The notes beneath the pieces are model-generated. The model saw only the letters and a list, made by a program, of their open reading frames with translations. It was not told where the DNA came from and searched no databases. The position numbers and the translations under genes were made by a program. Source: Patescibacteria group bacterium (GTDB taxonomy: Bacteria > Patescibacteriota > UBA1384 > UBA12157 > JAENIV01). Taken from it: a DNA stretch of 64,000 bases. This document shows, one piece after another, positions 21,578 through 40,709 of this stretch (positions within the stretch are counted from its first letter, which is position 1; every line of letters starts with the position of its first letter). The stretch lies in the NCBI GenBank assembly GCA_023485405.1, contig JAMCZU010000035.1:1519-65518 (forward strand), given 5' to 3'.

Positions 21578-23569
<1,992 letters not shown>

Positions 23570-23823: not shown

Positions 23824-26708
23824 TGGATCAAAACGAAGAAATAAAAGAAGAAATAACAGATTTAAACCCTGAAGAAGTGGCTAAAGCAGAGTCGGCTTTT
23901 GAATTTATCAAAACCAAAACAAAAGATGAAAAAACCGAATTTGGCTTAGTTCGTGGTCGCGTTTTGGAAGAGGAAATGCAAGAGTCTTACTTGGACTATG
24001 CGATGTCAGTTATTATTGCACGCGCTTTACCGGATGTTCGTGACGGTCTAAAGCCGGTTCACCGTCGTGTGCTTTATGCGATGTGGGAGACGGGGCTCAG
24101 ATCAAATGTCAAATATCGAAAATGTGCGGCCGTAGTCGGTGAGGTTTTAAAATCCTATCATCCGCACGGTGATATTGCCGTTTACGATACCTTAGTGCGA
24201 ATGGCTCAAGATTTTAATATGCGCGCGCCGCTGATTGATGGCCAAGGTAACTTTGGTTCAATGGACGGAGATTCCGCCGCGGCCATGCGTTATACCGAAG
24301 CGCGGATGAGCCAAGTTTCCGAAGAGCTTTTATTTGATATTGAAAAAGAAACAGTTGATTTTGTGCCCAACTACGATGGCACCAAAAAAGAGCCAAAAGT
24401 TTTACCCGCGAAACTACCCAATCTTTTAATTAATGGTTCGATGGGTATTGCGGTGGGAATGGCCACCAATATTCCCCCACATAATTTGGGTGAAATTTGT
24501 TCAGCCGTGATTTACTTAGCTGACAACCCGGATTGCACGATTGAAGATTTGATGGAATTTGTCAAAGGTCCCGATTTTCCTACCGGCGCCGAAATTTATG
24601 GCATCGAACAAATTAAAGCCGCTTATGCGGGTGGTAAAGGCGCAATTTTAATGCGGGCCGTGGCCAACATTGAAGAAACAAAGAGAGGGTATCGTATTAT
24701 TGTTTCTGAAATTCCTTATCAAGTCAACAAAGCGGAGTTAATCTCTAAAATTGCCGATTTAGTTAAAGAAAAAAAGATTGAAGGCATCAGTGATCTTCGC
24801 GATGAGTCGGATCGGAAAGAAAAAGTTCGAATTGTTGTAGAACTAAAATCAAATGCTTATCCGAAAAAAATCTTAAATCGTTTGTATGAATTAACACTGA
24901 TGCAGACTTCTTTTTATGCTAATATGCTGGCATTAGTTGATGGGATTCAACCGCGCGTTTTGACGCTTAAAAATATCTTAGAAGAATATTTAAAACACCG
25001 AAAAATAGTTGTCCGTCATCGGACTGAATTTGATTTGGCCCGCGCCAAAGAACGAGCCCATGTTTTGGAAGGTTTGCGCATTGCCCTAAAATCAATTGAT
25101 GAAGTCATTGCCACCATTCGCAAATCGGCTGATCGAGACGAGGCTTGTAAATCACTGCAAACTAAATTTAAATTAACTGAAATCCAAGCCAATGCTATTT
25201 TGGATATGAGACTCTCAGCTTTAGCGGCATTGGAAAGAGAAAAAATTGAAGCGGAGTATCAAGAAAAATTAAAATTAATTAAAGAGTTAGAAGCAATTCT
25301 TGCCTCCGAAAAAAGAATTTTAGAAATTATTAAAAAAGAATTAGAAGATTTAAAGACCAAATACCCCAGTCCGCGTCGAACCAAAATTTATGCGGAATCT
25401 TTGGGTCGGTTTTCGGCCGAAGATTTAATTCCGTCAGAGCAAGTGATTATTCTACTTACTCGTGGTAATTACATTAAACGGATGCCGGTTTCGGCCTACC
25501 GCAGCCAAGTTCGTGGTGGTAAGGGCGTGATGGGAATGGAAACTAAAGAAGAAGATATGATTGAACATTTGGTCGTGGCTAATACTCATGATGATATTTA
25601 TTTCTTCACTGATCGTGGCCGGATTTTCCACACTAAAGTTTACGAATTACCGGCCGTCTCACGCATTTCCAAAGGTCAAGCGATTGTCAATCTCCTTCAA
25701 ATTTCACCGGAAGAAAAAGTAACGGCGATGATTACTGTTTCGCCCAAAGAAATTGAAAAGTACAAATATATCTTGCTCGCCACTTCCAAAGGCAATGTCA
25801 AAAAAACGGCTTTGGAGCTTTATTCGAAAGTTCGAAAAACTGGGATTGTAGCGATTAAATTAAAATCCGATGATCGTTTGCGTTGGGTTAAACTCACCAC
25901 TGGCAATGATATGATTTTCCAAGTTTCGGCTAAAGGTCAATCCATTCTATATAAAGAAAGTGATATTCGCTCAATGGGCCGAACCGCGGCTGGCGTGCGC
26001 GGAATTCAACTTCGAGCTAATGATTATGCGGTGGCGACCGACGTTCTACCACCAGGAATGGAAGAGAAATACGATGCCTTGATTGTTTTAGAAAAAGGTT
26101 TTGGCAAGCGCACACCTTTGAGTTTCTTTAAAACGCAACTTCGTGGTGGGATGGGAATGCGGGTGGCTAATGTCACTGACAGAACCGGGATGATTGTAGG
26201 AATGCGTTTAACTCAAGGTGACGATAGTGATTTAATTTTAGCTTCTTCTAAAGGTCAAATGATTCGGATTGCTTTAGCATCGGTTAAAAAACTTCAACGC
26301 GATACTCAAGGTGTGATTTTAGTGCGGATGGGAGCAGGGGATAAAGTTACTTCAGTGACGATTATGTCGAAAGATAAAGAAGAAAAATTAAATCAACCCG
26401 AGCCGGAATCTAAAGAAGAAGTCGAAACCATAGTCGAAGAAGCAAAAGTGGAAGAGAAAATTGAAGAGGCCGAAGAAAAGCTTGAAGAAGCGGCTGAACC
26501 TGGGAGTATCCCGGAATGGGCGAAGGCTCATCGTGATGAAAGAAGAGTAGTAGAAAAAGTTGAAACCGAAACTCCTAAAAATATTAAAGTTCATGATTAT
26601 AAAGAAGAAAAAAAAGAAATAAAAAAAGATAAACCAGAAGAACCTGTTTTGCCAAAAAAATCGTCAAAAAATGACGAAGCTAACTATTGGGGTAAAAGAT
26701 TGGGGTAG
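23823..26708 (+). CDS. gyrA: DNA gyrase subunit A with a long charged C-terminal extension of about 130 aa
   Basis: Active-site region AAMRYTEARM. QRDR-like segment HPHGDIAVYDTLVRMAQ. C-terminal beta-pinwheel repeats, then an E/K-rich tail. Confidence 0.9.
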   Translation: MDQNEEIKEEITDLNPEEVAKAESAFEFIKTKTKDEKTEFGLVRGRVLEEEMQESYLDYAMSVIIARALPDVRDGLKPVHRRVLYAMWETGLRSNVKYRKCAAVVGEVLKSYHPHGDIAVYDTLVRMAQDFNMRAPLIDGQGNFGSMDGDSAAAMRYTEARMSQVSEELLFDIEKETVDFVPNYDGTKKEPKVLPAKLPNLLINGSMGIAVGMATNIPPHNLGEICSAVIYLADNPDCTIEDLMEFVKGPDFPTGAEIYGIEQIKAAYAGGKGAILMRAVANIEETKRGYRIIVSEIPYQVNKAELISKIADLVKEKKIEGISDLRDESDRKEKVRIVVELKSNAYPKKILNRLYELTLMQTSFYANMLALVDGIQPRVLTLKNILEEYLKHRKIVVRHRTEFDLARAKERAHVLEGLRIALKSIDEVIATIRKSADRDEACKSLQTKFKLTEIQANAILDMRLSALAALEREKIEAEYQEKLKLIKELEAILASEKRILEIIKKELEDLKTKYPSPRRTKIYAESLGRFSAEDLIPSEQVIILLTRGNYIKRMPVSAYRSQVRGGKGVMGMETKEEDMIEHLVVANTHDDIYFFTDRGRIFHTKVYELPAVSRISKGQAIVNLLQISPEEKVTAMITVSPKEIEKYKYILLATSKGNVKKTALELYSKVRKTGIVAIKLKSDDRLRWVKLTTGNDMIFQVSAKGQSILYKESDIRSMGRTAAGVRGIQLRANDYAVATDVLPPGMEEKYDALIVLEKGFGKRTPLSFFKTQLRGGMGMRVANVTDRTGMIVGMRLTQGDDSDLILASSKGQMIRIALASVKKLQRDTQGVILVRMGAGDKVTSVTIMSKDKEEKLNQPEPESKEEVETIVEEAKVEEKIEEAEEKLEEAAEPGSIPEWAKAHRDERRVVEKVETETPKNIKVHDYKEEKKEIKKDKPEEPVLPKKSSKNDEANYWGKRLG

Positions 26709-26741
26709 AAATCTGCCAGCTGGCGGAAAATAAGAGGGGAC

Positions 26742-27956
26742 ATGATAGACGAAGAAAAACCGAAGAAAAAATCCAAAAAATGGTGGTGTTTGGGTTGTTT
26801 AGGTGTACTTGTTGCAATAGTAATTATGGTGATAATTATTCAGCGCCAGGCGGGATCATCGGGGAGCGATGAACCAAAAATGTCGGCGGCCAAAAACTAT
26901 CCATATCACGAGCCATCGGCCGAGGCCAAAAATCGCAATTTGGATTGCAAAAAAACAGTTCTTTATGTTCGTAGCCCGGCTAAACAAAATTATAATATTT
27001 TATGCGAAAATATTTATCAGATTTCGCCGGAAGATCTGGCGGCGAAAATTTCAGCCCAAAAATATGATCGCATTATGCTCTATGGTGAAAATGTTATCTT
27101 TGATGCTAACCCGAGCATTGCCGGCGCTCAAAATTTTAGTCAAAATTTTTACAATACTGTTAAATTCACTGATCAGTATATGCTACCTAAAATGTTGGCG
27201 TTTTACGGTCTAGCAGATTTAAGTTATATTAGTAAAGATTTTTCGCCGTATCCGGCTTTGTTTTACGAATTAGAGCCAAAAGATGAAGTTCACCGAATTT
27301 GTAAAACGAATTCGGCCAGTGGTTGCGCTCAAATGCACATGTGGGCCACTTTGGATGAAGAAATTTTAACCAGACATATTTGGACGAATCGTGAATTTTT
27401 GTCTAAAGACAACATGGATTCCGTTTCTTGGGACACGCATTGGCCAGCCGATTGTTATACTGATTTTGTTTTAGAGCACGAAACAGCCCATTTATTAGTG
27501 GGTGCTCATGCTTTGAAAGTAGTGGGGATGTCTATTAATACTTGGTATTATATTCCAAGTTGGTTTAACGAGCAGCAGGCCGGTTTGGCGGAAATTTTGG
27601 GTCAAAATTTAGTTTGTGGCGAAGGCACGCGCGTTAATATTAAAACAATAGTTAACGGTAAAGAGGAGCCGAAAGACATTACTTATTTTAATAGTCTTTA
27701 CCCGGCGATTTCACTGTCACAAACATATCCTCGAGATAACCCGTGTGAGTTGGGAATGCTTTCCTCGTTTTATCGTTATTTGGATAAAGGCGATATCAAT
27801 ACCACTTACCCGGCCTTTATGACCTCCTTTCGTCAAGCGATGGAAAAAAACAATGATTTTCGCGATGACCAAACTTTTCTAAATTTTCTTAAAGATCTTC
27901 ACAACAACGATCCAGCTGAAATGGACTTTTTACGTTCTCATCAGTGTTCGGTTTAA
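26742..27956 (+). CDS. Membrane-anchored hypothetical protein with an HExxH motif (LEHETAHLL), a possible zinc metallopeptidase
   Basis: N-terminal TM helix. Single HExxH. No family recognised. Confidence 0.5.
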   Translation: MIDEEKPKKKSKKWWCLGCLGVLVAIVIMVIIIQRQAGSSGSDEPKMSAAKNYPYHEPSAEAKNRNLDCKKTVLYVRSPAKQNYNILCENIYQISPEDLAAKISAQKYDRIMLYGENVIFDANPSIAGAQNFSQNFYNTVKFTDQYMLPKMLAFYGLADLSYISKDFSPYPALFYELEPKDEVHRICKTNSASGCAQMHMWATLDEEILTRHIWTNREFLSKDNMDSVSWDTHWPADCYTDFVLEHETAHLLVGAHALKVVGMSINTWYYIPSWFNEQQAGLAEILGQNLVCGEGTRVNIKTIVNGKEEPKDITYFNSLYPAISLSQTYPRDNPCELGMLSSFYRYLDKGDINTTYPAFMTSFRQAMEKNNDFRDDQTFLNFLKDLHNNDPAEMDFLRSHQCSV

Positions 27957-27971
27957 TTGTTTTTCAAAAAG

Positions 27972-27996
27972 AAAACCCCGATTTCTCGGGGTTATT
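27972..27996. terminator. Bidirectional intrinsic terminator ccccgagaaatcgggg flanked by A and T runs
   Basis: Hairpin ccccga-tttc-tcgggg followed by a T-rich tract. The minus-strand ORF at 27992-28177 ends inside it. Confidence 0.65.
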
Positions 27997-28177
27997 GGTT
28001 TGGGGATTTTACAATCAGCCAGACAATTAGTCCAACGCCGGCTATTATTAACAGAATTCCCGGCACAAGCACAGCATCCCACCATTTAACTGATGGTGGC
28101 GGTCCGATTGGTCTACTTGGTCCACTCTGGCCGTCCTGGTTTTCGTTGTAGTTATTGGGATTACCAAAGTCTTTCAT
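27992..28177 (-). CDS. Small protein (61 aa) with a C-terminal TM anchor
   Basis: AAGGAGG RBS. Probably co-transcribed with the PEP-CTERM gene, with which it has a 4-nt overlap. Confidence 0.5.
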   Translation of the reverse strand: MKDFGNPNNYNENQDGQSGPSRPIGPPPSVKWWDAVLVPGILLIIAGVGLIVWLIVKSPNQ

Positions 28178-29103
28178 CTTGATTTCCTCCTTTTCAAAAA
28201 TCCAAGCGTGGCGATGCCGGAAATAAGGGCAAGTAAGCTGGACGGTTCGGGGACGGGAACAAGATTGATCAAAGCATTCTGTCCAATTTGAAATTGGCTA
28301 TTGATTGTGTTGCCGTTTGCAAGCGTGCCAGAAAGTATTCTGTATGGTTCAGAGTCATAAGTTTTCCCGAAGATGCTTTTGATTTCTCTGAAACCAACAG
28401 GGTTTCCGTCAACAGTAAAATTGGAACCGCTGAGAGTTATTCGACTATTGTTTGCAGCGGCCAAAAGTATATCTATTAAGCCGCCACTGATGGTTATTTG
28501 ACTGTTATCGCGAGCAATTACGTAACCCAGAAGTCCATCGTTAATTATAGTGTGACTTAGGTCAGTTGTGTGGAAAGAATATGACGACCATCCGCCATTA
28601 ATTATTATGTTGCTGTTACCACTTATAGTTGTGTATAACGTTCCTCCGCTTGTTAGTATCGCAAAGCTGTTGCCGCTACTCACAAAGGAGTTGTATATGC
28701 GTCCTCCTTTCATTGCGAGACGACTATTAGCACTGATGCTTAAGTTATCCATAGTTCCATTATTTATTAATACCTGGCTATTGTCGGTAGCGTTTAAAGA
28801 GCCTACGTAACCGTTATTAATCGTTGCGTAGCTATTGTCGAGAATATCCAAGTAATTAATCCAATAGCCATATATACTTATCTTGCTGTTGTTATACCCT
28901 CGAAGAGTAAAAGGGATATATGCGTAATTTACTAAACTGATGGTGGTTTGTGCGTTTGGTGTTTGATAATCTATCCATACATCGTCGTCGATTTTGTAAT
29001 CAACAACATGTGTTTCTCCGTCTCTAAACTCAGTCAGAGCTATTGAGGCAGAAGACATGAATAAGCAAACTGTTGCCATTACGACATGTGTCAGTATTTT
29101 CAT
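28174..29103 (-). CDS. Secreted repeat (beta-helix-like) protein with a C-terminal PEP-CTERM sorting signal
   Basis: N-terminal signal peptide. Repeated NNS..TISGG units. The C-terminus VPVPEPSSLLALISGIATLGFLKRRKSR matches the PEP-CTERM pattern of PEP, a hydrophobic helix and Arg-rich residues. Confidence 0.65.
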   Translation of the reverse strand: MKILTHVVMATVCLFMSSASIALTEFRDGETHVVDYKIDDDVWIDYQTPNAQTTISLVNYAYIPFTLRGYNNSKISIYGYWINYLDILDNSYATINNGYVGSLNATDNSQVLINNGTMDNLSISANSRLAMKGGRIYNSFVSSGNSFAILTSGGTLYTTISGNSNIIINGGWSSYSFHTTDLSHTIINDGLLGYVIARDNSQITISGGLIDILLAAANNSRITLSGSNFTVDGNPVGFREIKSIFGKTYDSEPYRILSGTLANGNTINSQFQIGQNALINLVPVPEPSSLLALISGIATLGFLKRRKSR

Positions 29104-29388
29104 CTTTCCAGCCCTCTCCGCCGCAGCGGACCCGCGTCTAGCGGGCTTTCAAATTGTTCAGGAACATTCCCCAAAACTGCCTAAAGTATACCAGGCAATA
29201 AACCATTTGTCTACTATTTTTAATATTTATCTCGAACAAAAACCGAAAGTTATCCACACTTCCATTTAATTACAAAAAATATGATAATGTATTTGTGGTT
29301 CAAATAAATGATTATTTAATCATTAAATTCATTACTGAAGATACATATTTTTTAGGTAAAATGATCGCTAATTTAGGAAAGAGGTAAA

Positions 29389-30324
29389 ATGCATCCATTT
29401 GAAAAAATGTTAAGTGTTTCTAGCGAAAGCATTAATTATATTTTGTCAGGTTTTTCAGAAATTGAATGGTCTGAGTTTTTATTGAATCCTAGAAGATTGC
29501 GTGGAAGTGATTTTTTAATGAGATGGTCTCAAGGTGTGTGGAGTGAACACCGTCTTATGGATGGTATAAATTCCTCTAATGATTTTTATGCGATTCCATA
29601 TGGTCCAAGCGGGACTGCACCTCACGACGATGTTAGGGCTTTTGAACTATATTTTGAAAGATTAGAAGCCGCAGGGTTAGGTAATATAAAAAGACCCGAT
29701 CTTTTAATATTTAAGAAACAAGATAAATTAGAAGTAGAAAAAATTATTGAGAGGTATAATGGCTTAGCAGAATTACCTTTTATCAAGGAAGAGAGTCTTA
29801 AACCTCTGCTGTCCAAGGCTATTATTGGTGTTGAATGTGAAAATAGTTTATGGAAAGCAGAAAAAATGCCTGATTTTAATACAGCACTTAGACCTCAAAA
29901 GCGTCTCGAAGGAAAACTTGGTTTGGCGAAAAATGCAGTATTACCAACAATTATAATTAAAGAGGAAGATAGGGAGCCACTAAAAAAATGGCAAGAAATG
30001 AATAAATTACCAATTCATATTTGGCATGTTTTTTATGACCGTGCATATGGAATTTCTTTAAATGAAGCCGAGCGATTAATAAAAGAGAGAGTAGTTTTAC
30101 CTACTATACAAATATTTCAAGCACCGGGAGGAGCAACTACTCAAAAGGCAATTTATAAACTCTACTACCATTATGGTTATCCTCTAGGTAAAGCGACTCA
30201 AGAGCCACAACTGCTTTCGGCTTACGTAGAAGATAAAAATGGACACATTCTTCCATATGTAAAATTCGATGGTGGTAGTTTGAAAATTTCTGAGGAATGC
30301 TTAAATGTATTACATAAGTTTTAA
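29389..30324 (+). CDS. Putative type II restriction endonuclease, assigned by genomic context
   Basis: 311-aa ORF immediately upstream of the MTase (2-nt gap, same strand) in a very AT-rich block. No conserved motif could be assigned by eye. Confidence 0.4.
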   Translation: MHPFEKMLSVSSESINYILSGFSEIEWSEFLLNPRRLRGSDFLMRWSQGVWSEHRLMDGINSSNDFYAIPYGPSGTAPHDDVRAFELYFERLEAAGLGNIKRPDLLIFKKQDKLEVEKIIERYNGLAELPFIKEESLKPLLSKAIIGVECENSLWKAEKMPDFNTALRPQKRLEGKLGLAKNAVLPTIIIKEEDREPLKKWQEMNKLPIHIWHVFYDRAYGISLNEAERLIKERVVLPTIQIFQAPGGATTQKAIYKLYYHYGYPLGKATQEPQLLSAYVEDKNGHILPYVKFDGGSLKISEECLNVLHKF

Positions 30325-30326
30325 CT

Positions 30327-31826
30327 ATGAGTAACAAAAATCGAGAAGAATTAAGAAATTTGGGCCAATTTTGGACACCAGGATGGATTGCCAAAGTCAT
30401 GGTGGCTTATTTTCTTGATGGCAAACAAAAAGAGATTTTTGATCCTGCGGTTGGAACAGGTGCTTTTTATACAGCATTGAAAGAGCTGGATAAAAAAAGA
30501 CAAATCAAATTTTACGGTACTGATATTGATAAAAATGTGATAAAAGATGCTTTTAACCATAAAATTTTTGATAATAAAAGTGTAGTAGAAGTAAGAGATT
30601 TTATTAAGGAACCACCAACAAAAAAAATTTCTGCAATTATTGCTAATCCTCCCTATATTAGACATCATCGTTTATCGGCAGACACAAAGAAATTGTTAAA
30701 ACAAATTAGCTATAAGTACACAGGCTACGATATAGATGGGAGAGCAGGAATTCATATTTATTTCCTAATTCAATCATTGGGTTTATTGAAAAATGGCGGA
30801 AAACTATCTTTTATAATGCCTTCAGATACCTGTGAAGGTGTATTTGCAAAAAAATTATGGAACTGGATAGGAAATAATTACTGTATTGAAAAAGTTATTA
30901 CTTTTGAAAGTGAAGCTACACCTTTTCCGAATATTGATACCAATGCTATAATATTTTTTATTTCGAAAAATCCTAAACAATCAGTTTTTGAATGGGTTAG
31001 AGTTAAAAAAGAGTCAGGTCAATTATTGAATTATTTATTAAACAAAAATTGTGATTTTTCTGATTTAGAAATAATTAAGAGAGATACTGAAGAAGCTTTA
31101 TTCACGGGAATGTCAAGAAGACCAACGGAAAGAAGCCAATACAAATATAGATTAAGTGATTTTGCAAAAGTAATAAGAGGTATTGCATCAGGGGCTAATG
31201 ATTATTTTTTCATTACGAAGCAAAAAGCCGAAGAGTTAGGGATTCCAGGTAGGTATTTAAAGTCAGCATTAGGTAGGACAAGAGATATGGAAGGAAGTGT
31301 TATTACGCTTAATGATTTAAAAAAATTAGAAGAAAAAGGTCGTCCTACTTTATTATTATCACTTGATAATCAACGAAAAGAAGATTTACCAAAGTCATTA
31401 AGAAATTATATTGAAATAGGAGAAAAAAATAATTTACAGTATAAAGCTCTTATTTCAACAAGAAATCCTTGGTATAAAATGGAAAAAAGAAAACCTCCAA
31501 AATTTCTTTTTGCTTATCTTGGTAGAAGAAACGCAAGGTTTGTAATGAACCAAGCTGGTGTAATACCTTTAACAAGTTTTCTTTGTGTATATCCGTTATT
31601 TGATGATAAAAAGTATGTTAATAAATTATGGCAGATTTTAAACAATCCTAAAACAATCAATAATTTGAAACTTGTTGGAAAATCTTATGGTTCTGGTGCA
31701 GTTAAGGTAGAACCAAGATCACTGGCTAATTTACCGATTCCTGAAGAAGTCGTAAGGCGGGTAGGTATTGAACCAATGTATACAAAAGAACAACAAAAAA
31801 CATTATTCGAATTTGCGTATTCTTAA
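30327..31826 (+). CDS. N6-adenine DNA methyltransferase, gamma class (TaqI/Eco57I-like)
   Basis: Motif X GQFWTP, motif I FDPAVGTGAF, motif IV NPPY (IIANPPYIRHH). Confidence 0.8.
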   Translation: MSNKNREELRNLGQFWTPGWIAKVMVAYFLDGKQKEIFDPAVGTGAFYTALKELDKKRQIKFYGTDIDKNVIKDAFNHKIFDNKSVVEVRDFIKEPPTKKISAIIANPPYIRHHRLSADTKKLLKQISYKYTGYDIDGRAGIHIYFLIQSLGLLKNGGKLSFIMPSDTCEGVFAKKLWNWIGNNYCIEKVITFESEATPFPNIDTNAIIFFISKNPKQSVFEWVRVKKESGQLLNYLLNKNCDFSDLEIIKRDTEEALFTGMSRRPTERSQYKYRLSDFAKVIRGIASGANDYFFITKQKAEELGIPGRYLKSALGRTRDMEGSVITLNDLKKLEEKGRPTLLLSLDNQRKEDLPKSLRNYIEIGEKNNLQYKALISTRNPWYKMEKRKPPKFLFAYLGRRNARFVMNQAGVIPLTSFLCVYPLFDDKKYVNKLWQILNNPKTINNLKLVGKSYGSGAVKVEPRSLANLPIPEEVVRRVGIEPMYTKEQQKTLFEFAYS

Positions 31827-31884
31827 AATAAGAATTTACGAAAAGAAAAATCGAGAAAATTATTAAAGAAGGCGGTGAGTAAAA

Positions 31885-32127
31885 ATGTCTGAGTTGAAAG
31901 AATATATTGAAGATGTATTATTACAGATCGAGAAGGGGAAAGGAAATCATGATGTTTGGGGATCTGTGTATTTTGATATTGCAACAGTAAAAGAAAAGAA
32001 AGGGGGAGGAAAGATCGGAGTAAGTGTTCTTGGACTTGCAGGAGGTATAAAAAATGAGTCGGTATCTAGAATCCAATTTAAAATAAAAATGCAAGGAGCC
32101 CATGGTGGACCAGACGCATTTAAATAA
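31885..32127 (+). CDS. Small hypothetical protein (80 aa, Gly-rich), first gene of the TIR cassette
   Basis: AAGAAGG RBS. No family recognised. Confidence 0.45.
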   Translation: MSELKEYIEDVLLQIEKGKGNHDVWGSVYFDIATVKEKKGGGKIGVSVLGLAGGIKNESVSRIQFKIKMQGAHGGPDAFK

Positions 32128-32224
32128 AAATTGTTAAGGAATTAGTAAAAAGGTAGATGCAGACGTTTAATGTTTGGTTAAACACTGTCTTAAACTCAAG
32201 TAAAGAAGTAATGAAAGGATTATT

Positions 32225-32644
32225 GTGAAAAAAGTATTTGTTAGCTTTGACTACGAAAACGATAAACAATACAAGTATCTGCTTGAAGCATGGGATGCTA
32301 ATGACAAATTTGAATTCAAATTTTATGATTTGACACCTAATGAAATTCGAAGTGAAGATATTGGTAGAATTAAGGCTGGTCTCACAGCTAAAATAAAGCA
32401 AGCGACACATACTTTAGTGATTGTTGGAAAAGAAGCAAATAGATTACATCTTTCTTCAGAAGAAATCGGATTTAGAAATTGGATAAATTTTGAGGTTCGT
32501 CAAAGCATTAATGAGGGAAATAAAATTGCCATCATAAAGCTCTCGAGTAATTGTGCTTTACCGGAAGAATTATCTGGCGAACATTACTGGTATATAACTG
32601 GTTTTTCCGAAAAAAATGTAGCAAAAGTGCTTGAGGCCGAATAA
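32225..32644 (+). CDS. TIR-like domain protein (MTH538/DUF1863 type, ThsB-like). GTG start.
   Basis: N-terminal KVFVSFDYEND and W-x3-E (RNWINFEV) motifs characteristic of TIR/TIR-like NADase folds. AAAGGA RBS. Confidence 0.6.
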   Translation: MKKVFVSFDYENDKQYKYLLEAWDANDKFEFKFYDLTPNEIRSEDIGRIKAGLTAKIKQATHTLVIVGKEANRLHLSSEEIGFRNWINFEVRQSINEGNKIAIIKLSSNCALPEELSGEHYWYITGFSEKNVAKVLEAE

Positions 32645-32645
32645 A

Positions 32646-33266
32646 ATGAAAGAAATAGTATGCCAGATATTATTTGAGCACTACAATGATTCTTATCAAA
32701 TAAATCAAGCTAAAATTAAGCAAAGGGATAGGTTATTTGCTTATCTTTTGGTTGTTTTAGTCTTATTGCTTTTTGAAATTTATTCTCCTGAAAATGCTTC
32801 CGCAATTTTGTTGCAAACTATTTCTATTAAACTCGGGTTAAATACTCCTATTGATTTTGCTTTTTTAGGTACTATTATATGGTTTCTTTTACTATGTTTA
32901 CTCATCAGATATTTACAAACTGTTGTAGCAATAGAAAGAGGTTATTCTTACATTCACGATCTTGAAAACGAAATCTCAAATTTTATAAATCAAAAGAAGT
33001 TTTGTCGAGAAGGATATGCTTATCTTGACGATTATCCATTATTCTTAAATTGGGCTTCAAGTTTATTTAAAATAGTTTTTCCAGTAATTCTTTTATTCAT
33101 CGCTTCATATAAGATTTATATTGAAATTTCTAGTTTTAAAAAGAGTGTAACTTTTCTAGCTATTTTAGATTTTATTTTTTACTTAGCTATAGTTATCTCT
33201 TTAATAATTTGCTTTATATTTTCTAAGAAAAATAAAGAAATAAAAAATCATCGAGGGTTAAAATGA
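32646..33266 (+). CDS. Polytopic membrane protein (4-5 TM helices), hypothetical. TTG 32631 is an alternative start.
   Basis: Hydrophobic helices. Lies immediately downstream of the TIR-like gene and overlaps it. Confidence 0.5.
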   Translation: MKEIVCQILFEHYNDSYQINQAKIKQRDRLFAYLLVVLVLLLFEIYSPENASAILLQTISIKLGLNTPIDFAFLGTIIWFLLLCLLIRYLQTVVAIERGYSYIHDLENEISNFINQKKFCREGYAYLDDYPLFLNWASSLFKIVFPVILLFIASYKIYIEISSFKKSVTFLAILDFIFYLAIVISLIICFIFSKKNKEIKNHRGLK

Positions 33267-33502
33267 AACGGTTAATATTAAATATCTTTACTCTAATTTC
33301 TTTGCTGGTTGCGTTATTTTCCGGTTTTGCTTTAATTGCTTCCTTGAAAAAAGATGTATATTTAGGGCTTGCAACTCATTTTTGGCTTGACATCCATGTT
33401 GTATTTGGTTCAGCCATTATTATTCTTTTAATCCTACAAATAATTTTAAACCGAGCATGGATATTTAAAATGTTTAAAAAAATTAGGGAGGAGAAAAAAT
33501 GA
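33263..33502 (+). CDS. Small 2-TM membrane protein (79 aa)
   Basis: ATGA overlap with the upstream gene. Two hydrophobic helices. Confidence 0.5.
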   Translation: MKRLILNIFTLISLLVALFSGFALIASLKKDVYLGLATHFWLDIHVVFGSAIIILLILQIILNRAWIFKMFKKIREEKK

Positions 33503-33671
33503 ACAAGAAAATTGACAAAGAAAAATGGGCTAAACTATTAGCCAGTAAAACACCCGAAACTCATGCTGCCGTGATGCAAAAATTGGGCATTACGCCAGAA
33601 GAAGACAGAAGATGGCACGAAGAAAATGGTGGCGAATCTGCCGACTTTAGCAAGTTAAAATCAAATTCCTA
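33498..33671 (+). CDS. Small soluble protein (57 aa)
   Basis: Strong GGGAGGAG RBS. ATGA overlap with the upstream gene. Followed by the palindrome P2. Confidence 0.45.
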
Positions 33672-33718
33672 ACCTCTCGCTTACACTTCCGAAGTGTAAG
33701 TGGTAGAAAAATCAAGGA

Positions 33719-34066
33719 ATGAAAAATAATCGAACAATTGATATTATTAAAGACATTTATTATCGTCTAAGTGTCTTGCCGCTGATGTTTTCGTTTTGGA
33801 TTTTAATTATTATTTGGCGGTATCGAATTGAAAAAAATAAAAATCGGTTGTTTGAAAATCGCCAGAAACTTGATCGCATTTGGTATCTTAGTGGTTATTT
33901 AAAAGGTGTTAAGTATCGTCGAGAACAAGCTAAATTAAAAAAAATTGAAAAGATTTTTTTGCGTCTTGAAGAAAGTGCGAAAAAAGACGAAGGGCGTTAT
34001 GAAAAGCAAAAAGAACTTTTCGACAAATATTTTAGTAAGGTTTTTGATCCAAGCATTGGTAAATAA
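33719..34066 (+). CDS. Membrane-anchored hypothetical protein (115 aa)
   Basis: AAGGA RBS. N-terminal TM helix followed by a charged coiled region. Confidence 0.5.
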   Translation: MKNNRTIDIIKDIYYRLSVLPLMFSFWILIIIWRYRIEKNKNRLFENRQKLDRIWYLSGYLKGVKYRREQAKLKKIEKIFLRLEESAKKDEGRYEKQKELFDKYFSKVFDPSIGK

Positions 34067-34219
34067 TCTAACATCTGCCACCTATGAAGTGGAATATGGT
34101 AAAATAGAAATAAAGTAAAGTCATTATAGAAAAGTGATAGTAAAGCGTGAATATGATGATAAAAATAGCTATATTCACGATATATTGACAAGTATCCGTG
34201 AATATGATAAAATTTAGGT

Positions 34220-35092
34220 ATGGTAAACAATGATATTAAACAAAGAATTAATAATTTAAAAAAGCAATATGATTCTTTAAAGATTGGCAAAGGATCTCTT
34301 TTGGATATACTATCGGAAGCGGAGATTCCGGAGTCAGTCTATAACTCAAATGCTATTGAAAACTCAACCCTAACTATAGAGGAAACGGAAAAAATTCTTT
34401 TAGAACTTGAAGTTATGCGTAAGGTGTCTGTTCGAGAAGTTTTTGAAGCCAAGAATTTAGCTAGAGTTTTTGAATATATTAAAGATAAAATCCTAAGTAA
34501 AGATTTAGATAAGGAACTAATTTTATTTCTACACAAAATGTTGATTAGTGGTATAAATGATGATTATGCTGGTAGATTTCGAAAGTCAGGTGAATATGTC
34601 AGAGTCGGGACACATATTGCTCCCGCTCCAGAACGCGTATTATTAATGATTAAATCGGCTCTATTGGATTATTCGAGTGATCATACTTCATATTTTATTG
34701 AAAAAATTGCAAAATTTCATTTAAAATTTGAACATATTCATCCATTTTGTGATGGTAATGGTAGAATTGGCAGAGTCTTAATAAACTATTCGCTGATGCA
34801 GCTTGGATTTCCGCCGGTTATTATTCGTGATAAAGAAAAGCATCTTTACTATAAAACTTTTAAAGAATTTAAAGATTATAAGAAAACAGCAGGGATGGAA
34901 AGTATTTTATATCTTGCTCTTTTAGAATCGTTAAATAAAAGGATTGCTTATCTGCAAGGTAATAAGATTATCGCATTATCTGAATATGCCAAAAATACAG
35001 ATCAACCTTTGAATATTTTATTAAATAAAGCAAAGCGTCAAACCACAGCTGCTTTTCGAGAAAAAGGCATTTGGAAAATAGGGCAGAAATAA
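34220..35092 (+). CDS. Fic/Doc-family protein (AMPylation-type toxin fold)
   Basis: Canonical Fic motif HPFCDGNGRIGR. Confidence 0.8.
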   Translation: MVNNDIKQRINNLKKQYDSLKIGKGSLLDILSEAEIPESVYNSNAIENSTLTIEETEKILLELEVMRKVSVREVFEAKNLARVFEYIKDKILSKDLDKELILFLHKMLISGINDDYAGRFRKSGEYVRVGTHIAPAPERVLLMIKSALLDYSSDHTSYFIEKIAKFHLKFEHIHPFCDGNGRIGRVLINYSLMQLGFPPVIIRDKEKHLYYKTFKEFKDYKKTAGMESILYLALLESLNKRIAYLQGNKIIALSEYAKNTDQPLNILLNKAKRQTTAAFREKGIWKIGQK

Positions 35093-35172
35093 AAAAAATT
35101 TGTGGGACAACTCTCTCTTGCTCTCAAAATTTGCTAAAATAATATTAAGCAAAAAAAATATCGAGGAGAATT

Positions 35173-35832
35173 ATGTATAAACTATCACCATCGGATTTTG
35201 CTTATTTATATGAAGAATGCAAGCTTTGTTATTGTCTAAAGGTTAAAGAGAATATTTACCAACCAAGCATGCCAATGCCTGGTGTTTTTTCGGCGATCAA
35301 TACTCGTTTGCAAGGTAATTTAGTTGGTAAAAATTTAAGAACTTTGTCTCGCAATTTACCGGAGGGAGTTGTGGTAACTCAAGAAGGCTGGGTCGAGTCA
35401 GTAGTTGTGCCAGGAACCAATGTTTTTATCAAAGGTAAATACGATCTTTTGGTGAAAAATAGTGATGGTACGCATACTTTAGTTGATCTAAAAATTAGTC
35501 AGCCGGTCGAAGATAAAATTGAAAAATACAAAACACAATTAGGCGCTTATAAATTTGCACTGGAAAATCCCGCCAGTGGTGAAAAGATTAAGATTTCTAG
35601 ATTGGGACTTTTGATTTTTTACCCAGATACTGTCACTTTTGAAAATGGAGTTGCACGGCTCGATTTTCCGCCAAAGTGGCTAGAAATTGCTTGTGACGAT
35701 ACGAATTTTACTAATTTCATTAAAGATGTTGATAAACTTCTAACTGGGCCATTACCGGACGAAGATCAAAATTGCAAATGGTGCGCTTATCGTCATACTG
35801 GAGAAAATATAATTCATAAGGAGGAAAAATGA
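35173..35832 (+). CDS. Cas4-like PD-(D/E)xK nuclease (DUF83/RecB-family fold with Fe-S-type cysteines). No CRISPR array or cas1/cas2 genes are present.
   Basis: Core GKYDLLV...DLKIS (D...E/DxK). N-terminal CKLCYC and C-terminal CKWC cysteines resemble the Cas4 4Fe-4S cluster arrangement. Confidence 0.5.
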   Translation: MYKLSPSDFAYLYEECKLCYCLKVKENIYQPSMPMPGVFSAINTRLQGNLVGKNLRTLSRNLPEGVVVTQEGWVESVVVPGTNVFIKGKYDLLVKNSDGTHTLVDLKISQPVEDKIEKYKTQLGAYKFALENPASGEKIKISRLGLLIFYPDTVTFENGVARLDFPPKWLEIACDDTNFTNFIKDVDKLLTGPLPDEDQNCKWCAYRHTGENIIHKEEK

Positions 35833-36005
35833 AAAACATTCATCATGGTGGATCGAATGCGGTCTATGGACTGGGTTTTATTGGCGCCGCTGTTTATTTT
35901 ATCAGTCAGGCAACCACATTTTGGCTCGGCGTACTCGGGTTTCTAAAAGCCATTGTCTGGCCCGCCTTTTTAGTCTACGAAGCCCTCAAATTTTTAGGCA
36001 AATAG
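35829..36005 (+). CDS. Small 2-TM membrane protein (58 aa)
   Basis: AAGGAGG RBS. ATGA overlap with the Cas4-like gene. Confidence 0.45.
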   Translation: MKNIHHGGSNAVYGLGFIGAAVYFISQATTFWLGVLGFLKAIVWPAFLVYEALKFLGK

Positions 36006-36045
36006 ACAAGTAAAAAAATCTCAAAACTAATAATCTTTAACCGAT

Positions 36046-36075
36046 ACACATCCCACTTCCAAGGTGGACCTTTTT
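36046..36075 (+). terminator. Intrinsic terminator cccacttccaaggtgg plus T6. The same core sequence recurs at 56144-56170.
   Basis: Hairpin followed by a T-run. Marks the end of the island operon. Confidence 0.6.
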
Positions 36076-36239
36076 TCAGGTTAGATGTTAGAAAAAATAG
36101 TATGCTATAGCTTGTTATTTAGGATACCTTACTTATAGTCGAAGCATGTTATTTTTAAATTAAAAAAATATTATTGAGGAATAAGTGATAAAAAATAAGC
36201 TTTGAACAAAAATATCCAAAGCTTATATGGTACCCCGCT

Positions 36240-36755
36240 TCATGCGGGACCGTCTAAAGATGCTCTTCCTGATGCCAGACCTATATATGAAGGGCGCTTA
36301 CTACCCAGGTCTCGACTCCATATATAACCACAATTGGCACACTTTCTTGTCTCGACATAGGTCACATTTTCATCTGGTACTTGATCATAGTACTCAATCA
36401 CTTCCACCCTTCGACTCGCATCACAAAGTATTTCCCGTCCATCGCATTTTTGGCAATGGAGATAGTCCTGATAAAAAATGTTCGAAAATGATTTTCCTAA
36501 TTCATCAAAGAGAATTCCCAGAGCCAAACAAGGACTTGCTATCGTCCATATAAGACACAAAAGCCAGACTATTAGGTTGTCTTCTTCAAACTTATTGTTG
36601 AAAAGATGTGCTAACGCTAGTTTGAATGTCCACGCCAAAAATAGTAAGCCAAGAGGCCAAAGCACACTACCTACAATACCCACTCTTCTTCTACACTTGG
36701 AGTACTTTGTTACCTGATCAATCTCCTCTTCAGATACGATAATCTTCAGTGACAT
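36240..36755 (-). CDS. Membrane protein with a C-terminal zinc-ribbon (HCQKCDG...CANCG), hypothetical
   Basis: AGGGAGG RBS at the internal ATG (MSLKII). Two TM helices. Hairpin terminator at 36199-36226 followed by a T-run. Confidence 0.45.
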   Translation of the reverse strand: MSLKIIVSEEEIDQVTKYSKCRRRVGIVGSVLWPLGLLFLAWTFKLALAHLFNNKFEEDNLIVWLLCLIWTIASPCLALGILFDELGKSFSNIFYQDYLHCQKCDGREILCDASRRVEVIEYYDQVPDENVTYVETRKCANCGYIWSRDLGSKRPSYIGLASGRASLDGPA

Positions 36756-37037
36756 CAGAATTTTCCTCCCTTTACTCATCAGTAAGCTACATCATAAACG
36801 ACGGCTTCGATGGCAGATTTGTCCTTTGATTAACTCAGGACGAAATTGTCAAAGAACAGCCTTGATTATAGTTCGGTTATAGTAAAAAGTCAATCGGTTG
36901 TACTCATCAAAAGCATTATTTAAGTTCAAACTTCCTATAAATAAAAACAGTCTGTAAATGTAGTATAGTTTCATATTAAGCACTCTATGTGATAATATAG
37001 ATATTAAATAAAAGAATTAATTAAAAAAGGAGTGATT

Positions 37038-37202
37038 ATGTCAATTGTATCGGAATCGGAATTCAAGGGAAATCCAATGATTGTGATTAAGCTTGATGAG
37101 GAAGATAAATTTCCTTTTCAATTCGGGGTCAAAAAAGCTAAATTAGTTTTAGAAAATATTGAAGAAATAAAAAAGTTTGTCGAAAGACACGACCGATCGT
37201 AA
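37038..37202 (+). CDS. Small hypothetical protein (54 aa)
   Basis: Strong AAGGAG RBS. Lies upstream of the CDGSH protein gene. Confidence 0.45.
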   Translation: MSIVSESEFKGNPMIVIKLDEEDKFPFQFGVKKAKLVLENIEEIKKFVERHDRS

Positions 37203-37232
37203 GTAGCGACTCTATTTCTAAAAAGAAATCAG

Positions 37233-37910
37233 ATGGACCAAATTAAGCAAGTACGTAAAATTAAAATTACGGAAAATGGACCGTATACGGTTTCCGGCAG
37301 TGTGCCGCTTTCGGAGGAAAAAATTGTCAATGATGCCGATGGATTCCCCTTAAAATGGGAGAAAATCAAAGAGCATCATTGCAAAGAAGAATATTCTCTT
37401 TGTCGTTGTGGCCATTCCAAAAACAAACCATTTTGTGATAAAAACCATAAAGAGATTAATTTTAATGGTGAAGAGACTGCCAGCAATGTACCTTTTGAAA
37501 AACAAGCAGAAACAATTGTTGGACCTGAATTAATTCTTAAAGATTCACCTCCACTTTGCGTTCACGCTCGTTTTTGTGATCGCGCTGGTGGAATTTGGGA
37601 CTTAGTTCAAAAATCAGATGAAAAAAAATCTAAAAAAATTGCGATCGAAGAGGCTTTTAATTGTCCGTCCGGTCGGTTAGTTGTCAAAGATAAAAAAACA
37701 GGGCAAGCCATTGAGCCAGAATTTGAGCAATCAATTTCGGCAACTGAAGATGCGGAAGGAATCGCTGGTCCTTTGTGGGTTAAGGATGGTATTCCAATTG
37801 AATCGGCCCAGGGCCAAACTTACGAAGTCAGAAATCGTATCACTCTTTGTCGTTGTGGCCATTCGAAAAACAAACCATTTTGTGATGGCTCACATTATTT
37901 AATTTCATAA
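37233..37910 (+). CDS. CDGSH-type iron-sulfur domain protein with two CDGSH-like motifs
   Basis: CRCGHSKNKPFCDKNH and CRCGHSKNKPFCDGSH. Confidence 0.8.
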   Translation: MDQIKQVRKIKITENGPYTVSGSVPLSEEKIVNDADGFPLKWEKIKEHHCKEEYSLCRCGHSKNKPFCDKNHKEINFNGEETASNVPFEKQAETIVGPELILKDSPPLCVHARFCDRAGGIWDLVQKSDEKKSKKIAIEEAFNCPSGRLVVKDKKTGQAIEPEFEQSISATEDAEGIAGPLWVKDGIPIESAQGQTYEVRNRITLCRCGHSKNKPFCDGSHYLIS

Positions 37911-37958
37911 AGTTCTCTTCCTTGCTAATTTCTCCTGATAGTGCTAATATTGGAGCTA

Positions 37959-39830
37959 ATGGCAAGAAAAAAAGTCCGAAAATTAAGTAAAAAAGAAGCG
38001 AAAGCGGAAAAAAAGACGACTGACAGTCGAGCAGAGTTTTTTGAAGAAAAAAAAGTTGAAACCGCTAAAACTCAAGAGCGCGAGGTTGTTGAAATTCCCT
38101 CTGTTTTGTCGGTGCGTGAATTTGCCGAAGCTCTTAAAATGCCCGTAACTCAAGTTATTTCCAAGTTAGTTAAAAACGGCGTCATGGCGACAATTAATGA
38201 ACTAATTGATTTTGATACGATGTCTATTATCGCCGATGAACTTGGTGTTGACTTAAAACAAGAAGAAGAAAAAAAGCAAACTTTTGAATCACCCAAACAA
38301 ACGAAAAAAAATCTTCAAACTCGTCCACCGGTAGTCACAATTATGGGTCATGTTGACCACGGTAAAACTCAGCTTTTAGACGCCATTCGTCACACCGATG
38401 TCATTGCCACTGAATCAGGTGGAATTACTCAACACATTGGTGCTTATCAAGTAAATGTAGGACAAAAAGACAAAAAGACCGAGAGACAAAGAGTAATCAC
38501 CTTTTTAGATACGCCTGGTCATGAAGCTTTCTCAGCGATGCGAGCTCACGGGGCTAATATTACTGATGTCGTGGTTTTGGTGGTCGCGGCCAACGATGGT
38601 GTCAAGCCCCAAACTCAAGAAGCTTATTCTCATGCTAAAGAAGCTAAAGTGCCAATCGTTGTGGCGATCAATAAAATTGATTTACCGGACGCCGATGTGG
38701 AAAAAACCAAAAGACAGTTAGCCGACATTGGACTTTTGCCGGAAGGCTGGGGTGGTAAAACGCCAATGGTGGAAGTTTCAGCCAAAATGCATCAAAATAT
38801 TGATAAACTTTTGGAAATGATTATTTTAGTGGCCGATTTAGAAGATCTCAAAGCCGACCCGACACTTGCAGCCGCGGGCGTCGTGATCGAATCGCATATG
38901 CAAGCCGGGATGGGTCCGATTGCCACTATTTTAGTTCAAGAAGGCACCTTGCATTTGGGTGACCCAATTGTCATTGGTCAAACCTATGGCAAGATCAGAA
39001 TTATGGAAAATTATTTGGGCAAAAAGATTAAAGAAGCGTTACCTGCGACACCCGTCAGAGTGGCTGGATTGCAAGATTTGCCAGATTTTGGTGACCGATT
39101 TTTAGCCGTTGAAAACGATAAAATTGCCAAAGAATTAGTTAAAACTAAAACCATCAAGCGAAAAGTTTTGTCTATTGGCGAACTTTCCCGTGATATTAGA
39201 GAAGGTAAAGTTAAAGAATTAAAAATAGTTCTCAAAGCTGATGTGGCTGGATCATTGGAAGCAATTAAAAATTCACTTAAAAATATTTCCACATCAGAGG
39301 TAAAAATTAATGTTATTCATGAAGGAGTGGGTGATGTGACTGAGTCAGATGTGAATATGGCGGTCGCTTCCGAAGCCTTAGTGATTGGTTTTCGGATTAA
39401 AGCTCAAGCCGAAGTGATGAATTTGGCTAATCGTGAAAAAATTAAAATTTCAATTTATGATATTATTTATCAACTATTGGATGATCTCGCCGCCGCTTTG
39501 TCGGGGCTTTTGGAGCCGGAAATTATTGAAACGGAAGTTGGTCGCTTGCAAGTTTTGGCGGTTTTTAAAATTTCTAAAAATGAAAAAATTATTGGTGGTA
39601 AAGTGACTACTGGCAAAATTGAAAATGGTGCCGAGGTCAGAATTGTTCGTGATCGCGACAATGTTGGCACTGGTAAAATTACTAATTTACAACAAAACAA
39701 AAAGGATATGAGCGAAGTTTTGGAAGGTTTTGAAGCTGGTTTGAAAGTGGAGACATCAACAAAAATCCAAGTGGGCGATTCTCTTGAGTGTTTCCGAAAG
39801 GAAGAACGAATTCGTAAATTGGGGGAGTAA
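37959..39830 (+). CDS. infB: Translation initiation factor IF-2, short form lacking the long N-terminal region. GTG 37941 is an alternative start.
   Basis: G domain [26 protein letters not shown]-terminal beta-barrel domains. Confidence 0.9.
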   Translation: MARKKVRKLSKKEAKAEKKTTDSRAEFFEEKKVETAKTQEREVVEIPSVLSVREFAEALKMPVTQVISKLVKNGVMATINELIDFDTMSIIADELGVDLKQEEEKKQTFESPKQTKKNLQTRPPVVTIMGHVDHGKTQLLDAIRHTDVIATESGGITQHIGAYQVNVGQKDKKTERQRVITFLDTPGHEAFSAMRAHGANITDVVVLVVAANDGVKPQTQEAYSHAKEAKVPIVVAINKIDLPDADVEKTKRQLADIGLLPEGWGGKTPMVEVSAKMHQNIDKLLEMIILVADLEDLKADPTLAAAGVVIESHMQAGMGPIATILVQEGTLHLGDPIVIGQTYGKIRIMENYLGKKIKEALPATPVRVAGLQDLPDFGDRFLAVENDKIAKELVKTKTIKRKVLSIGELSRDIREGKVKELKIVLKADVAGSLEAIKNSLKNISTSEVKINVIHEGVGDVTESDVNMAVASEALVIGFRIKAQAEVMNLANREKIKISIYDIIYQLLDDLAAALSGLLEPEIIETEVGRLQVLAVFKISKNEKIIGGKVTTGKIENGAEVRIVRDRDNVGTGKITNLQQNKKDMSEVLEGFEAGLKVETSTKIQVGDSLECFRKEERIRKLGE

Positions 39831-39845
39831 TTTACAAATTTTAAA

Positions 39846-40706: not shown

Positions 40707-40709
40707 TTC

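Follow-up and report, generated by a model that had tools for sequence, protein, structure and literature searches.

The pan-genome hotspots of Escherichia coli and the core defence hotspots of Pseudomonas aeruginosa are examples of defence islands situated between core genes. Patescibacteria are usually described as CRISPR-poor and host-dependent, and our search of the literature on defence systems in this group found nothing directly relevant. The DNA analysed here is a 64,000-nucleotide stretch (the window; GC content about 37%) of contig JAMCZU010000035.1 from a Patescibacteria group bacterium (assembly GCA_023485405.1), and the subject of this study is the slot between its gyrA and infB genes. 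This slot is very probably a chromosomal hotspot in which accessory, mostly anti-phage cassettes are gained, lost and shuffled, and which in this genome holds an 11.2-kb mosaic of independent modules. It resembles the known chromosomal hotspots in being a fixed place flanked by core genes, short or empty in some genomes and carrying different defence systems in close relatives, and in its mosaic, AT-rich content lacking a dedicated recombinase. It differs in the reduced-genome patescibacterial host, in the gyrA and infB flanks and in several non-defence passengers; the comparators are about a dozen metagenome-derived loci. A sequence-only reading of the window had proposed a horizontally acquired defence island at this place. 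The proposal was supported by the transfer of a restriction-modification (R-M) pair, by GC content and by synteny, and was refined in that the locus is a mosaic slot and not one inserted element.

The modules have described counterparts. A preprint of December 2025 catalogued 29 putative Thoeris types, with a "4TM" category in its Table S1; the systems assayed, as given in Table S2, do not include the plain 4TM type, but for a number of related Thoeris types experiments showed that a ThsB-type TIR combined with a membrane effector is defensive (bioRxiv 10.64898/2025.12.03.692087). The 4TM configuration of that catalogue is a two-gene operon in which a ThsB-type TIR of ~140 amino acids (aa) stands directly before a multi-pass protein of ~200 aa, and the window contains an operon of the same layout. 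The remaining modules that could be classified resemble AccI-type type II R-M systems, class II Fic AMP-transferases and PD-(D/E)XK nucleases of the Cas4/RecB kind.

The gyrA-infB slot in the window and in its relatives

Related loci were collected with the C-terminal half of GyrA as query against species-representative genomes and JGI metagenomes. Twelve loci were returned, whose GyrA proteins were 68-88% identical to that of the window. When these were compared with the window by blastn and tblastn, homology ended at the 3' end of gyrA and returned at ~37916, 23-25 bp ahead of infB. By synteny, everything from 26709 to ~37915 is variable. The limits 28174-36075 given in the sequence-only reading thus enclosed a real island but were drawn too narrowly. 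In the loci reaching infB, the gap between the two genes measured 61 bp to 4.9 kb, as compared to 11.2 kb in the window. The gaps contained the following:

L005: gap 61 bp, empty
L003 and L009/L030: gap 447-473 bp, at most one short open reading frame (ORF)
L028 and L029: gap about 1.1 kb, NUDIX hydrolase and membrane protein
L033: gap 2.0 kb, NUDIX hydrolase and membrane protein
L032: at least 1.6 kb (contig ends short of infB), NUDIX hydrolase, membrane protein and Maf-like gene
L002: gap 1.9 kb, SLATT-like protein, trypsin-like protease and 152-aa protein
L001/L027 (nearest, about 81% identical in nucleotide sequence): gap 4.9 kb, sigma factor, 56-aa gene, PD-(D/E)XK nuclease and another type II R-M system
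L004 (Berkelbacteria): contig ends; 40%-identical homologue of the window's 404-aa protein directly after gyrA

The same block in the same place in relatives would have argued for an ancestral origin; it was carried by 0 of the 12 loci. The window's R-M, TIR, Fic, PEP-CTERM and CDGSH genes were all missing from the gaps of these loci, and gyrA and infB are nearly adjacent in some of them (L005). The two closest relatives have other defence cargo in the same slot, and in a further clade it is occupied by a NUDIX gene and a membrane protein gene. The R-M system of L001/L027 is a different one (PADLOC matches of 8e-115 for the methyltransferase and 1e-72 for the endonuclease), and the cargo of L002 matched the PADLOC models RTasSLATT (6e-7) and PDC-M35A (2e-9). 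The three genes of L002 form a cassette (11794-13345) with a GC content of 0.289, as compared to 0.358 for the locus; its protease matches the PDC-M35A and RT-protease models of PADLOC, its 152-aa protein is membrane-anchored, and the cassette is a candidate defence system in its own right.

The features of the slot and its flanks in the window are listed below.

21632-23569: gyrB, upstream flank
23823-26708: gyrA, left flank of the slot
26709-37915: entire variable slot between gyrA and infB, as delimited by blastn and tblastn against the 12 related loci
26742-27956, plus strand: 404-aa membrane-anchored protein with HETAH (HExxH) motif
27974-27993: bidirectional terminator hairpin separating the 404-aa gene from the convergent operon on the minus strand
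27992-28177, minus strand: 61-aa membrane ORF, overlapping the PEP-CTERM gene
28174-29103, minus strand: PEP-CTERM repeat protein (TIGR02595)
29270-35100, plus strand: compositionally deviant core, comprising the R-M pair, the 80-aa ORF, the TIR-4TM operon, small ORFs and the Fic gene
29389-30324, plus strand: AccI-family type II restriction endonuclease (REase; PF09545, PADLOC REase_II)
30327-31826, plus strand: gamma-class N6-adenine DNA methyltransferase (MTase), Eco57I-type (PF07669, PF02384, PF22837)
31885-32127, plus strand: 80-aa ORF with sub-threshold matches
32225-32644, plus strand: ThsB-type TIR, 139 aa (PF08937, PADLOC ThsB)
32631-33266, plus strand: four-helix membrane protein (4TM), overlapping the TIR stop codon
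33263-33502, plus strand: 79-aa DUF4405-like membrane protein
33499-33672, plus strand: 57-aa ORF
33719-34066, plus strand: 115-aa ORF without family match
34220-35092, plus strand: class II Fic-domain protein (PF02661, PDC-S04)
35173-35832, plus strand: PD-(D/E)XK nuclease with Cys clusters (PF12705)
35829-36005, plus strand: 58-aa hydrophobic ORF, overlapping the nuclease stop codon
36053-36075, plus strand: weak terminator-like hairpin with T-run
36195-36226, minus strand: strong terminator of the 179-aa gene
36240-36779, minus strand: 179-aa membrane protein with C-terminal CxxC pairs
37032-37202, plus strand: 56-aa gene, 91% identical in L001
37233-37910, plus strand: CDGSH iron-sulfur protein (PF09360, 2.6e-37)
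37941-39830: infB, right flank of the slot

All genes named in the sequence-only reading, as well as their order, were confirmed by family searches (Pfam, PADLOC and NCBIfam). The type II R-M pair, the ThsB-type TIR with its membrane partner and the Fic protein of the PDC-S04 model all lie within 5.8 kb. The "strong terminator" that had been placed at 36053-36075 was not borne out: the structure there is a 6-bp hairpin of -6.5 kcal/mol (z = -0.39 against shuffled sequences). More stable structures were found at 27974-27993 (8-bp stem with five GC pairs, -16.2 kcal/mol, z = -2.8) and at 36195-36226 (-15.6 kcal/mol, z = -6.5).

The PD-(D/E)XK nuclease and the 56-aa gene are older residents of the slot, since they are shared with the nearest relative (L001/L027, same slot) at 86% and 91% identity, respectively, values equal to core-gene identity. 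The nuclease is probably a gene of the lineage and not island cargo. In L001 (12590-13457) the 56-aa gene is situated directly upstream of the nuclease and is contiguous with it, whereas in the window (35164-35822 and 36998-37202) the order of the two is swapped and they are 1.2 kb apart. Between them lie the 58-aa ORF, which has no family match and is absent from L001, and the minus-strand 179-aa gene; the breakpoint falls exactly at a gene junction. The 404-aa protein is probably also an older neighbour of gyrA and not recent cargo: its homologue in L004 (6784-8025, 40% identical) follows gyrA directly there too.

Composition of the slot, transfer of the R-M pair and mobility

The segment 29270-35100 has a GC content of 0.309 and is the lowest-GC 5.8-kb stretch of the window, whereas non-overlapping stretches of the same length elsewhere have a mean of 0.378 (standard deviation 0.012, minimum 0.346), which places it about 5.8 standard deviations under the others, well outside what chance would produce. 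Tetranucleotide distance to the rest of the window is highest at 29-34 kb. From the R-M pair to the Fic gene, the GC content of single genes is mostly 0.26-0.34, the 80-aa and 57-aa ORFs (0.36-0.40) being exceptions, and genes outside the slot have 0.375±0.034. The lower-GC, foreign-looking content previously ascribed to the whole of 28174-36075 thus holds for 29.27-35.10 kb and fails at both ends, where the PEP-CTERM gene (0.401), the nuclease (0.362) and the 58-aa ORF (0.446) are not GC-poor.

The first two genes of the deviant core encode the type II R-M pair. The endonuclease matched Pfam RE_AccI (PF09545, 1.2e-16) and PADLOC REase_II (2e-15), in both cases partially (Pfam profile positions 35-143; PADLOC positions 238-351 of 366); the RE_AccI match extends over two stretches. 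The methyltransferase matched PADLOC MTase_II (7e-58) and carries N6_Mtase, Eco57I and M_Eco57I_C domains; its motif I (DPAVGTG, residue 39) precedes NPPY (residue 107), the gamma-class order. The pair resembles AccI-type systems composed of an RE_AccI endonuclease and an Eco57I-type gamma m6A methylase in having adjacent, co-oriented REase and MTase genes and the NPPY motif. It differs from them by the partial profile match of the endonuclease and by the frequency of the AccI site GTMKAC, which is not depleted in the window.

Homologues of the methyltransferase, 78-90% identical, were found in three other, mutually unrelated contexts, each with the same AccI-like endonuclease before it, so that the two genes, which are 2 bp apart, occur together in 4/4 contexts. 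In three Patescibacteria metagenome-assembled genomes (MAGs; L050-52) the pair lies between DUF2130/RNase HII and holin-like/CofD/SecG genes and is 92% (REase) and 90% (MTase) identical to that of the window in protein and 89% in nucleotide sequence. In a Berkelbacteria MAG (L053; 86% and 85% protein identity) it lies between glycosyltransferase genes and a Cu-oxidase_4 gene, and in a genome of 47% GC (L054/55; 74% and 78%) it adjoins CheB. Nucleotide homology is confined to the two ORFs (29386/96 to 31827/37). The GC content of the cassette was lower than that of the host in 3/3 of the other contexts (0.340 vs 0.376, 0.368 vs 0.422 and 0.353 vs 0.470). UvrA and RNase HII of L050 are only 51% and 45% identical to those of the window, whereas the R-M proteins are 90-92% identical; sequence identity therefore carries a clear signature of recent horizontal transfer of a two-gene cassette. 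A Fic gene and a 219-aa gene near the R-M pair of L050 were considered as equivalents of the window's Fic-nuclease pair and were rejected, as they had no detectable similarity to it. The DnaB protein encoded next to the R-M pair of L053 carries an intein domain.

These data bear on the alternative that the gyrA-infB block is ancestral and that the relatives lost its genes in the course of genome reduction. Patescibacteria genomes are reduced, the slot of L001/L027 contains the nuclease and the 56-aa gene as well, and even in the more distant L004 the gene after gyrA encodes a homologue of the 404-aa protein. However, the core made up of the R-M, TIR-4TM and Fic genes is compositionally deviant, and the R-M proteins are far closer to those of a distant genome than the core proteins are. 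The nearest relatives hold other cargo and not remnants; in none of the relatives' gaps did tblastn reveal pseudogenes derived from the block. For the R-M pair, a history at odds with that of gyrA and infB is already indicated. We regard an ancestral block as distinctly unlikely.

Another possibility was that a single integrative element, for example a degraded prophage, brought in the whole of 28.2-36.1 kb at once. Between 29.4 and 36.0 kb every gene is read from the plus strand and neighbours are closely spaced, and low GC is fairly uniform from 29.3 to 35.1 kb, as such an element would have it. The check for integrase remnants and flanking repeats suggested in the sequence-only reading was carried out and came out negative: the ORFs of 26.7-37.9 kb contained no integrase or transposase domain (Pfam), no tRNA gene is located near the slot (the only one in the window is at 3378), and no flanking direct repeats longer than expected by chance were detected. 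No phage nucleotide similarity was found for the region, plasmid similarity was limited to a ~65-bp stretch around the conserved motif of the Fic gene (Clostridium plasmids), and viral contigs contained no relatives of the Fic protein. Moreover, elsewhere the R-M pair is found without the other modules, as is the TIR-4TM pair, and the nuclease with which the block ends on its 3' side belongs to the older residents. Arrival as one element is thus very unlikely, and a mosaic of independent modules is preferred.

Because the source is a metagenome-assembled genome, a chimera of assembly or binning, in which foreign low-GC DNA was joined through an R-M cassette shared in the community, was also considered. 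Near-identical R-M cassettes are present in other Patescibacteria, and in a second assembly, that of run SRR10267473, the REase gene is interrupted by a contig break at 29508-29535, near the start of the shared cassette. The break fits an assembly-graph branch caused by an R-M cassette shared among community genomes. The Logan contigs of this run match 26606-29535 and 29508-35948 at 100% identity and overlap by 28 nucleotides, also at 100% identity. The left contig contains gyrA, the 404-aa and PEP-CTERM genes and the 5' end of the REase gene, and the right one extends from the REase gene through the Fic gene into the nuclease, the orthologue of the L001/L027 gene in the gyrA-infB slot. Together they connect gyrA with the REase and the latter with the resident nuclease. 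Since the sequences to the left and right of the break are parts of one slot, we consider a chimera extremely unlikely.

The TIR-4TM cassette, the Fic protein and the other genes

The TIR protein matched PF08937 (1.2e-10) and the PADLOC model ThsB (4.7e-13). Its residue Glu90, in an NW.N.E motif, was invariant in an alignment of 9 family members and, by analogy with other TIRs, would be catalytic. For the 4TM protein encoded by the overlapping downstream gene (206 aa with start at 32646 in the database gene call), a word-index search returned a single relative, which was 56% identical and was preceded by a TIR 72% identical to that of the window. An exhaustive search with a profile hidden Markov model extended the family to 666 representatives of about 200 aa. 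In 5/6 contexts sampled across the family a ThsB-type TIR gene (roughly 140 aa) was located directly upstream. An AlphaFold (AF2) model of the 4TM protein was all-helical (pLDDT 93.7, pTM 0.88). Assignment to a known family was rejected: 0/85 family members had a Pfam or PADLOC match, and a Foldseek search of the PDB yielded nothing below E = 0.88.

With the "4TM"-associated TIRs of Table S1 the window TIR shares 42-63% identity, and it clusters with them (bioRxiv 10.64898/2025.12.03.692087). Matched in this way through TIR similarity, the cassette is a member of the predicted "4TM" Thoeris configuration, with the TIR as predicted infection sensor and signal synthase and the 4TM protein as predicted Thoeris-like effector. 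In contrast to the validated membrane-effector Thoeris types II, V and VII, the window effector has no Macro, DUF2270, DUF6650, SLATT or SLOG domain detectable with Pfam or PADLOC, and it fits none of the validated effector classes (SIR2-SLOG, Macro-TM, DUF2270, DUF6650, SLATT and others).

Two small genes downstream of the 4TM gene are translationally coupled. The 79-aa gene overlaps the 4TM gene by 4 bp, and the 57-aa gene overlaps the 79-aa gene by 4 bp, through start/stop overlaps; the 79-aa protein has a DUF4405 match (1e-5) just under the cutoff. Unlike the window, 4TM Thoeris loci elsewhere lack these two coupled genes: the 79-aa, 57-aa and 115-aa ORFs were all absent beside the TIR-4TM pair in the other loci looked at. 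The 80-aa ORF between the MTase and TIR genes gave matches to two conflict-system domains, NA-iREase1 (0.011) and Trypco2 (0.053); both identities were rejected because the matches were sub-threshold. In other loci, neither the R-M pair nor the TIR pair is accompanied by this ORF.

The Fic protein matched PF02661 (2e-20), the PADLOC candidate model PDC-S04 (5e-38) and the SoFic model (1.9e-24). It shares with class II, SoFic-like AMP-transferases and with PDC-S04 the Fic motif HPFCDGNGRIGR (at 174) and an N-terminal inhibitory motif, SNAIEN (at 43). It differs from SoFic itself, since its score against the NCBIfam SoFic equivalog (33 bits) is far below the cutoff of 550. The gene appears to have a promoter of its own (34185-34213, 11/12 positions matching). 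From these motifs, the protein is predicted to belong to the class II, autoinhibited type of AMP-transferase, and it is a candidate single-gene defence system.

Post-segregational killing can be exerted by R-M systems as well as by Fic/Doc toxins. The R-M, Fic and TIR-4TM modules could therefore be selfish residents which persist in a toxin-antitoxin-like manner, with the slot serving as a dump for addiction modules of no net anti-phage role. The defence status of the 4TM Thoeris type and of PDC-S04 is predicted or candidate only, and the undepleted AccI site would also agree with such a role. On the other hand, the same slot gathers defence-type cargo in the relatives, the inhibitory motif of the Fic protein is part of the protein itself and no antitoxin gene accompanies it, and a ThsB-type TIR with a membrane effector proved defensive in experiments on several other, related Thoeris types (bioRxiv 10.64898/2025.12.03.692087). 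Selfish persistence of this kind seems unlikely, and mostly anti-phage cargo remains our preferred interpretation.

The nuclease had been described as "Cas4-like". It is a PD-(D/E)XK nuclease (PF12705, PDDEXK_1, 1e-10), but the match to Cas4 itself is weak (PADLOC, 2e-5) and there is no CRISPR context; no CRISPR or tandem array and no cas genes were found in the window. It resembles Cas4/RecB-like nucleases with Fe-S cysteines in its PDDEXK_1 domain, in the motif D91...D105-x-K107 and in the N- and C-terminal Cys clusters (5-6 Cys, including Cys16/19/21/201/204), which are putative Fe-S ligands. It differs from Cas4 in its neighbours, which are the Fic gene and the 58-aa ORF.

The PEP-CTERM protein scored 23.6 bits with NCBIfam TIGR02595 (cutoff 16) and 19.8 with Pfam, just under the cutoff of 20.7. 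Its C-terminus VPEPSSLL...KRRKSR (VPEPSSLLALISGIATLGFLKRRKSR) consists of the PEP motif, a transmembrane helix and a basic tail. The GC content of the gene is ordinary, and its codon-usage fit is the worst in the window (-1.41 vs -0.99±0.08). Only four homologues were found, all distant (29-39% identity), two of them ending in VPEP motifs. They appear to be from outside the Candidate Phyla Radiation (CPR), one being located in a context unlike CPR genomes, and the gene appears to have been imported from a diderm bacterium. A scan of ORFs with 120 aa or more at 3.5-47 kb of the window detected no exosortase, a scan that excluded 47-1882, 2283-2978 and the DNA beyond 47 kb.

The 404-aa protein had no Pfam or PADLOC hit; it contains many cysteines, its gene has a normal GC content (0.391), and it may represent an uncharacterised family of surface metalloproteases. 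The 179-aa gene, with atypical codon usage (-1.31), had no family match and was absent from the loci of all relatives. The CDGSH gene, which the sequence-only reading had placed next to infB and proposed to look for after gyrA elsewhere, was present in no relative's locus, and an exact-sequence lookup of its protein found no identical entry on record.

Several observations concern the flanks and the rest of the window. The C-terminal extension of GyrA (26300-26708) is long, highly charged and Lys/Glu-rich, and GyrA measures 961-1013 aa in the window and its relatives. The extension diverges fast between genomes; nucleotide homology to L001 stops at 26581. In L033 (5186-8257), a stretch of about 1.1 kb without similarity interrupts the gyrB matches and may represent an intein or an insertion. 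On the other side of the slot, a sigma-70 family gene (39846-40706; GC normal, 0.384) constitutes a precise 915-bp insertion (39834-40748) between infB and cdaA; in L001 and L002 cdaA follows infB directly, and the sigma-70 gene that L001 carries immediately behind gyrA is a different one (35% identical). A second GC-poor patch (44912-46887; 0.29-0.33), possibly a further accessory site, includes a NUDIX gene, a minus-strand gene lacking annotation and, at 46207-46887, an IS200-like Y1 transposase-domain protein (PF01797, 3e-8). Identification of 15416-17915 as DnaA and DnaN was rejected; the genes encode a sugar transferase and a GT4 glycosyltransferase.

Proposed working and significance of the slot

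Several points weigh against the hotspot interpretation. No mobility gene, tRNA or flanking repeat is present in or around the slot, and for this reason we can only infer the mode of entry. About half of the slot ORFs (PEP-CTERM, CDGSH, 404-aa, 179-aa and small ORFs) have no defence annotation, and the anti-phage role of the 4TM Thoeris type and of PDC-S04 is that of a predicted system and a candidate. The AccI site GTMKAC occurs 16 times in the window (19.6±4.3 expected), hence the specificity and activity of the R-M system are stated as predictions. Segments at 20.2-20.8 kb and 44.9-46.9 kb are also GC-poor, so that low GC alone is not diagnostic. Finally, the comparators are all metagenome-assembled and the closest is only about 81% identical at the nucleotide level; at this distance the insertions cannot be dated and their exact junctions cannot be defined.

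In the working proposed for the mosaic, cassettes would enter when the conserved flanks recombine with homologous DNA, and no site-specific recombinase would be involved. The methyltransferase would mark host DNA, and the endonuclease would cut unmethylated incoming DNA. The TIR would sense infection and make a NAD-derived signal; the signal would activate the 4TM protein, which would breach the membrane and lead to abortive infection. The Fic protein may contribute to anti-phage function by autoinhibited AMPylation of a target. The PEP-CTERM surface protein, the small membrane ORFs and the CDGSH protein would be non-defence passengers, and the PD-(D/E)XK nuclease and the 56-aa gene would be the older residents.

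Each of the modules belongs to a known or already predicted class, and the principle that defence islands occupy hotspots is well established. The novelty is modest and lies in gyrA-infB as a defence hotspot in a Patescibacteria lineage and in a natural example of the TIR + 4TM Thoeris type, which is a predicted one. A more far-reaching interpretation, which we put forward tentatively and consider rather doubtful, is that the slot is a lineage-wide, recombinase-free site for the exchange of defence cassettes in Patescibacteria, and that one of its cargoes is a functional Thoeris type whose four-helix effector lacks relatives in Pfam, PADLOC and the PDB as well as any recognisable ligand-binding domain and is extended here by the two coupled small genes (79-aa DUF4405-like and 57-aa). 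If this were true, the cassette would represent a new coupling of a TIR signal to membrane disruption in an episymbiotic bacterium.

The locus offers a natural test case, together with a high-confidence structural model, for the predicted TIR + 4TM Thoeris configuration. Because relatives use the same slot for other defence cargo, the gyrA-infB interval is a practical landmark for mining defence genes in uncultured Patescibacteria lineages. For the organism itself, the finding means that a reduced genome devotes about 6 kb beside essential genes to stacked, recently exchanged defence modules.

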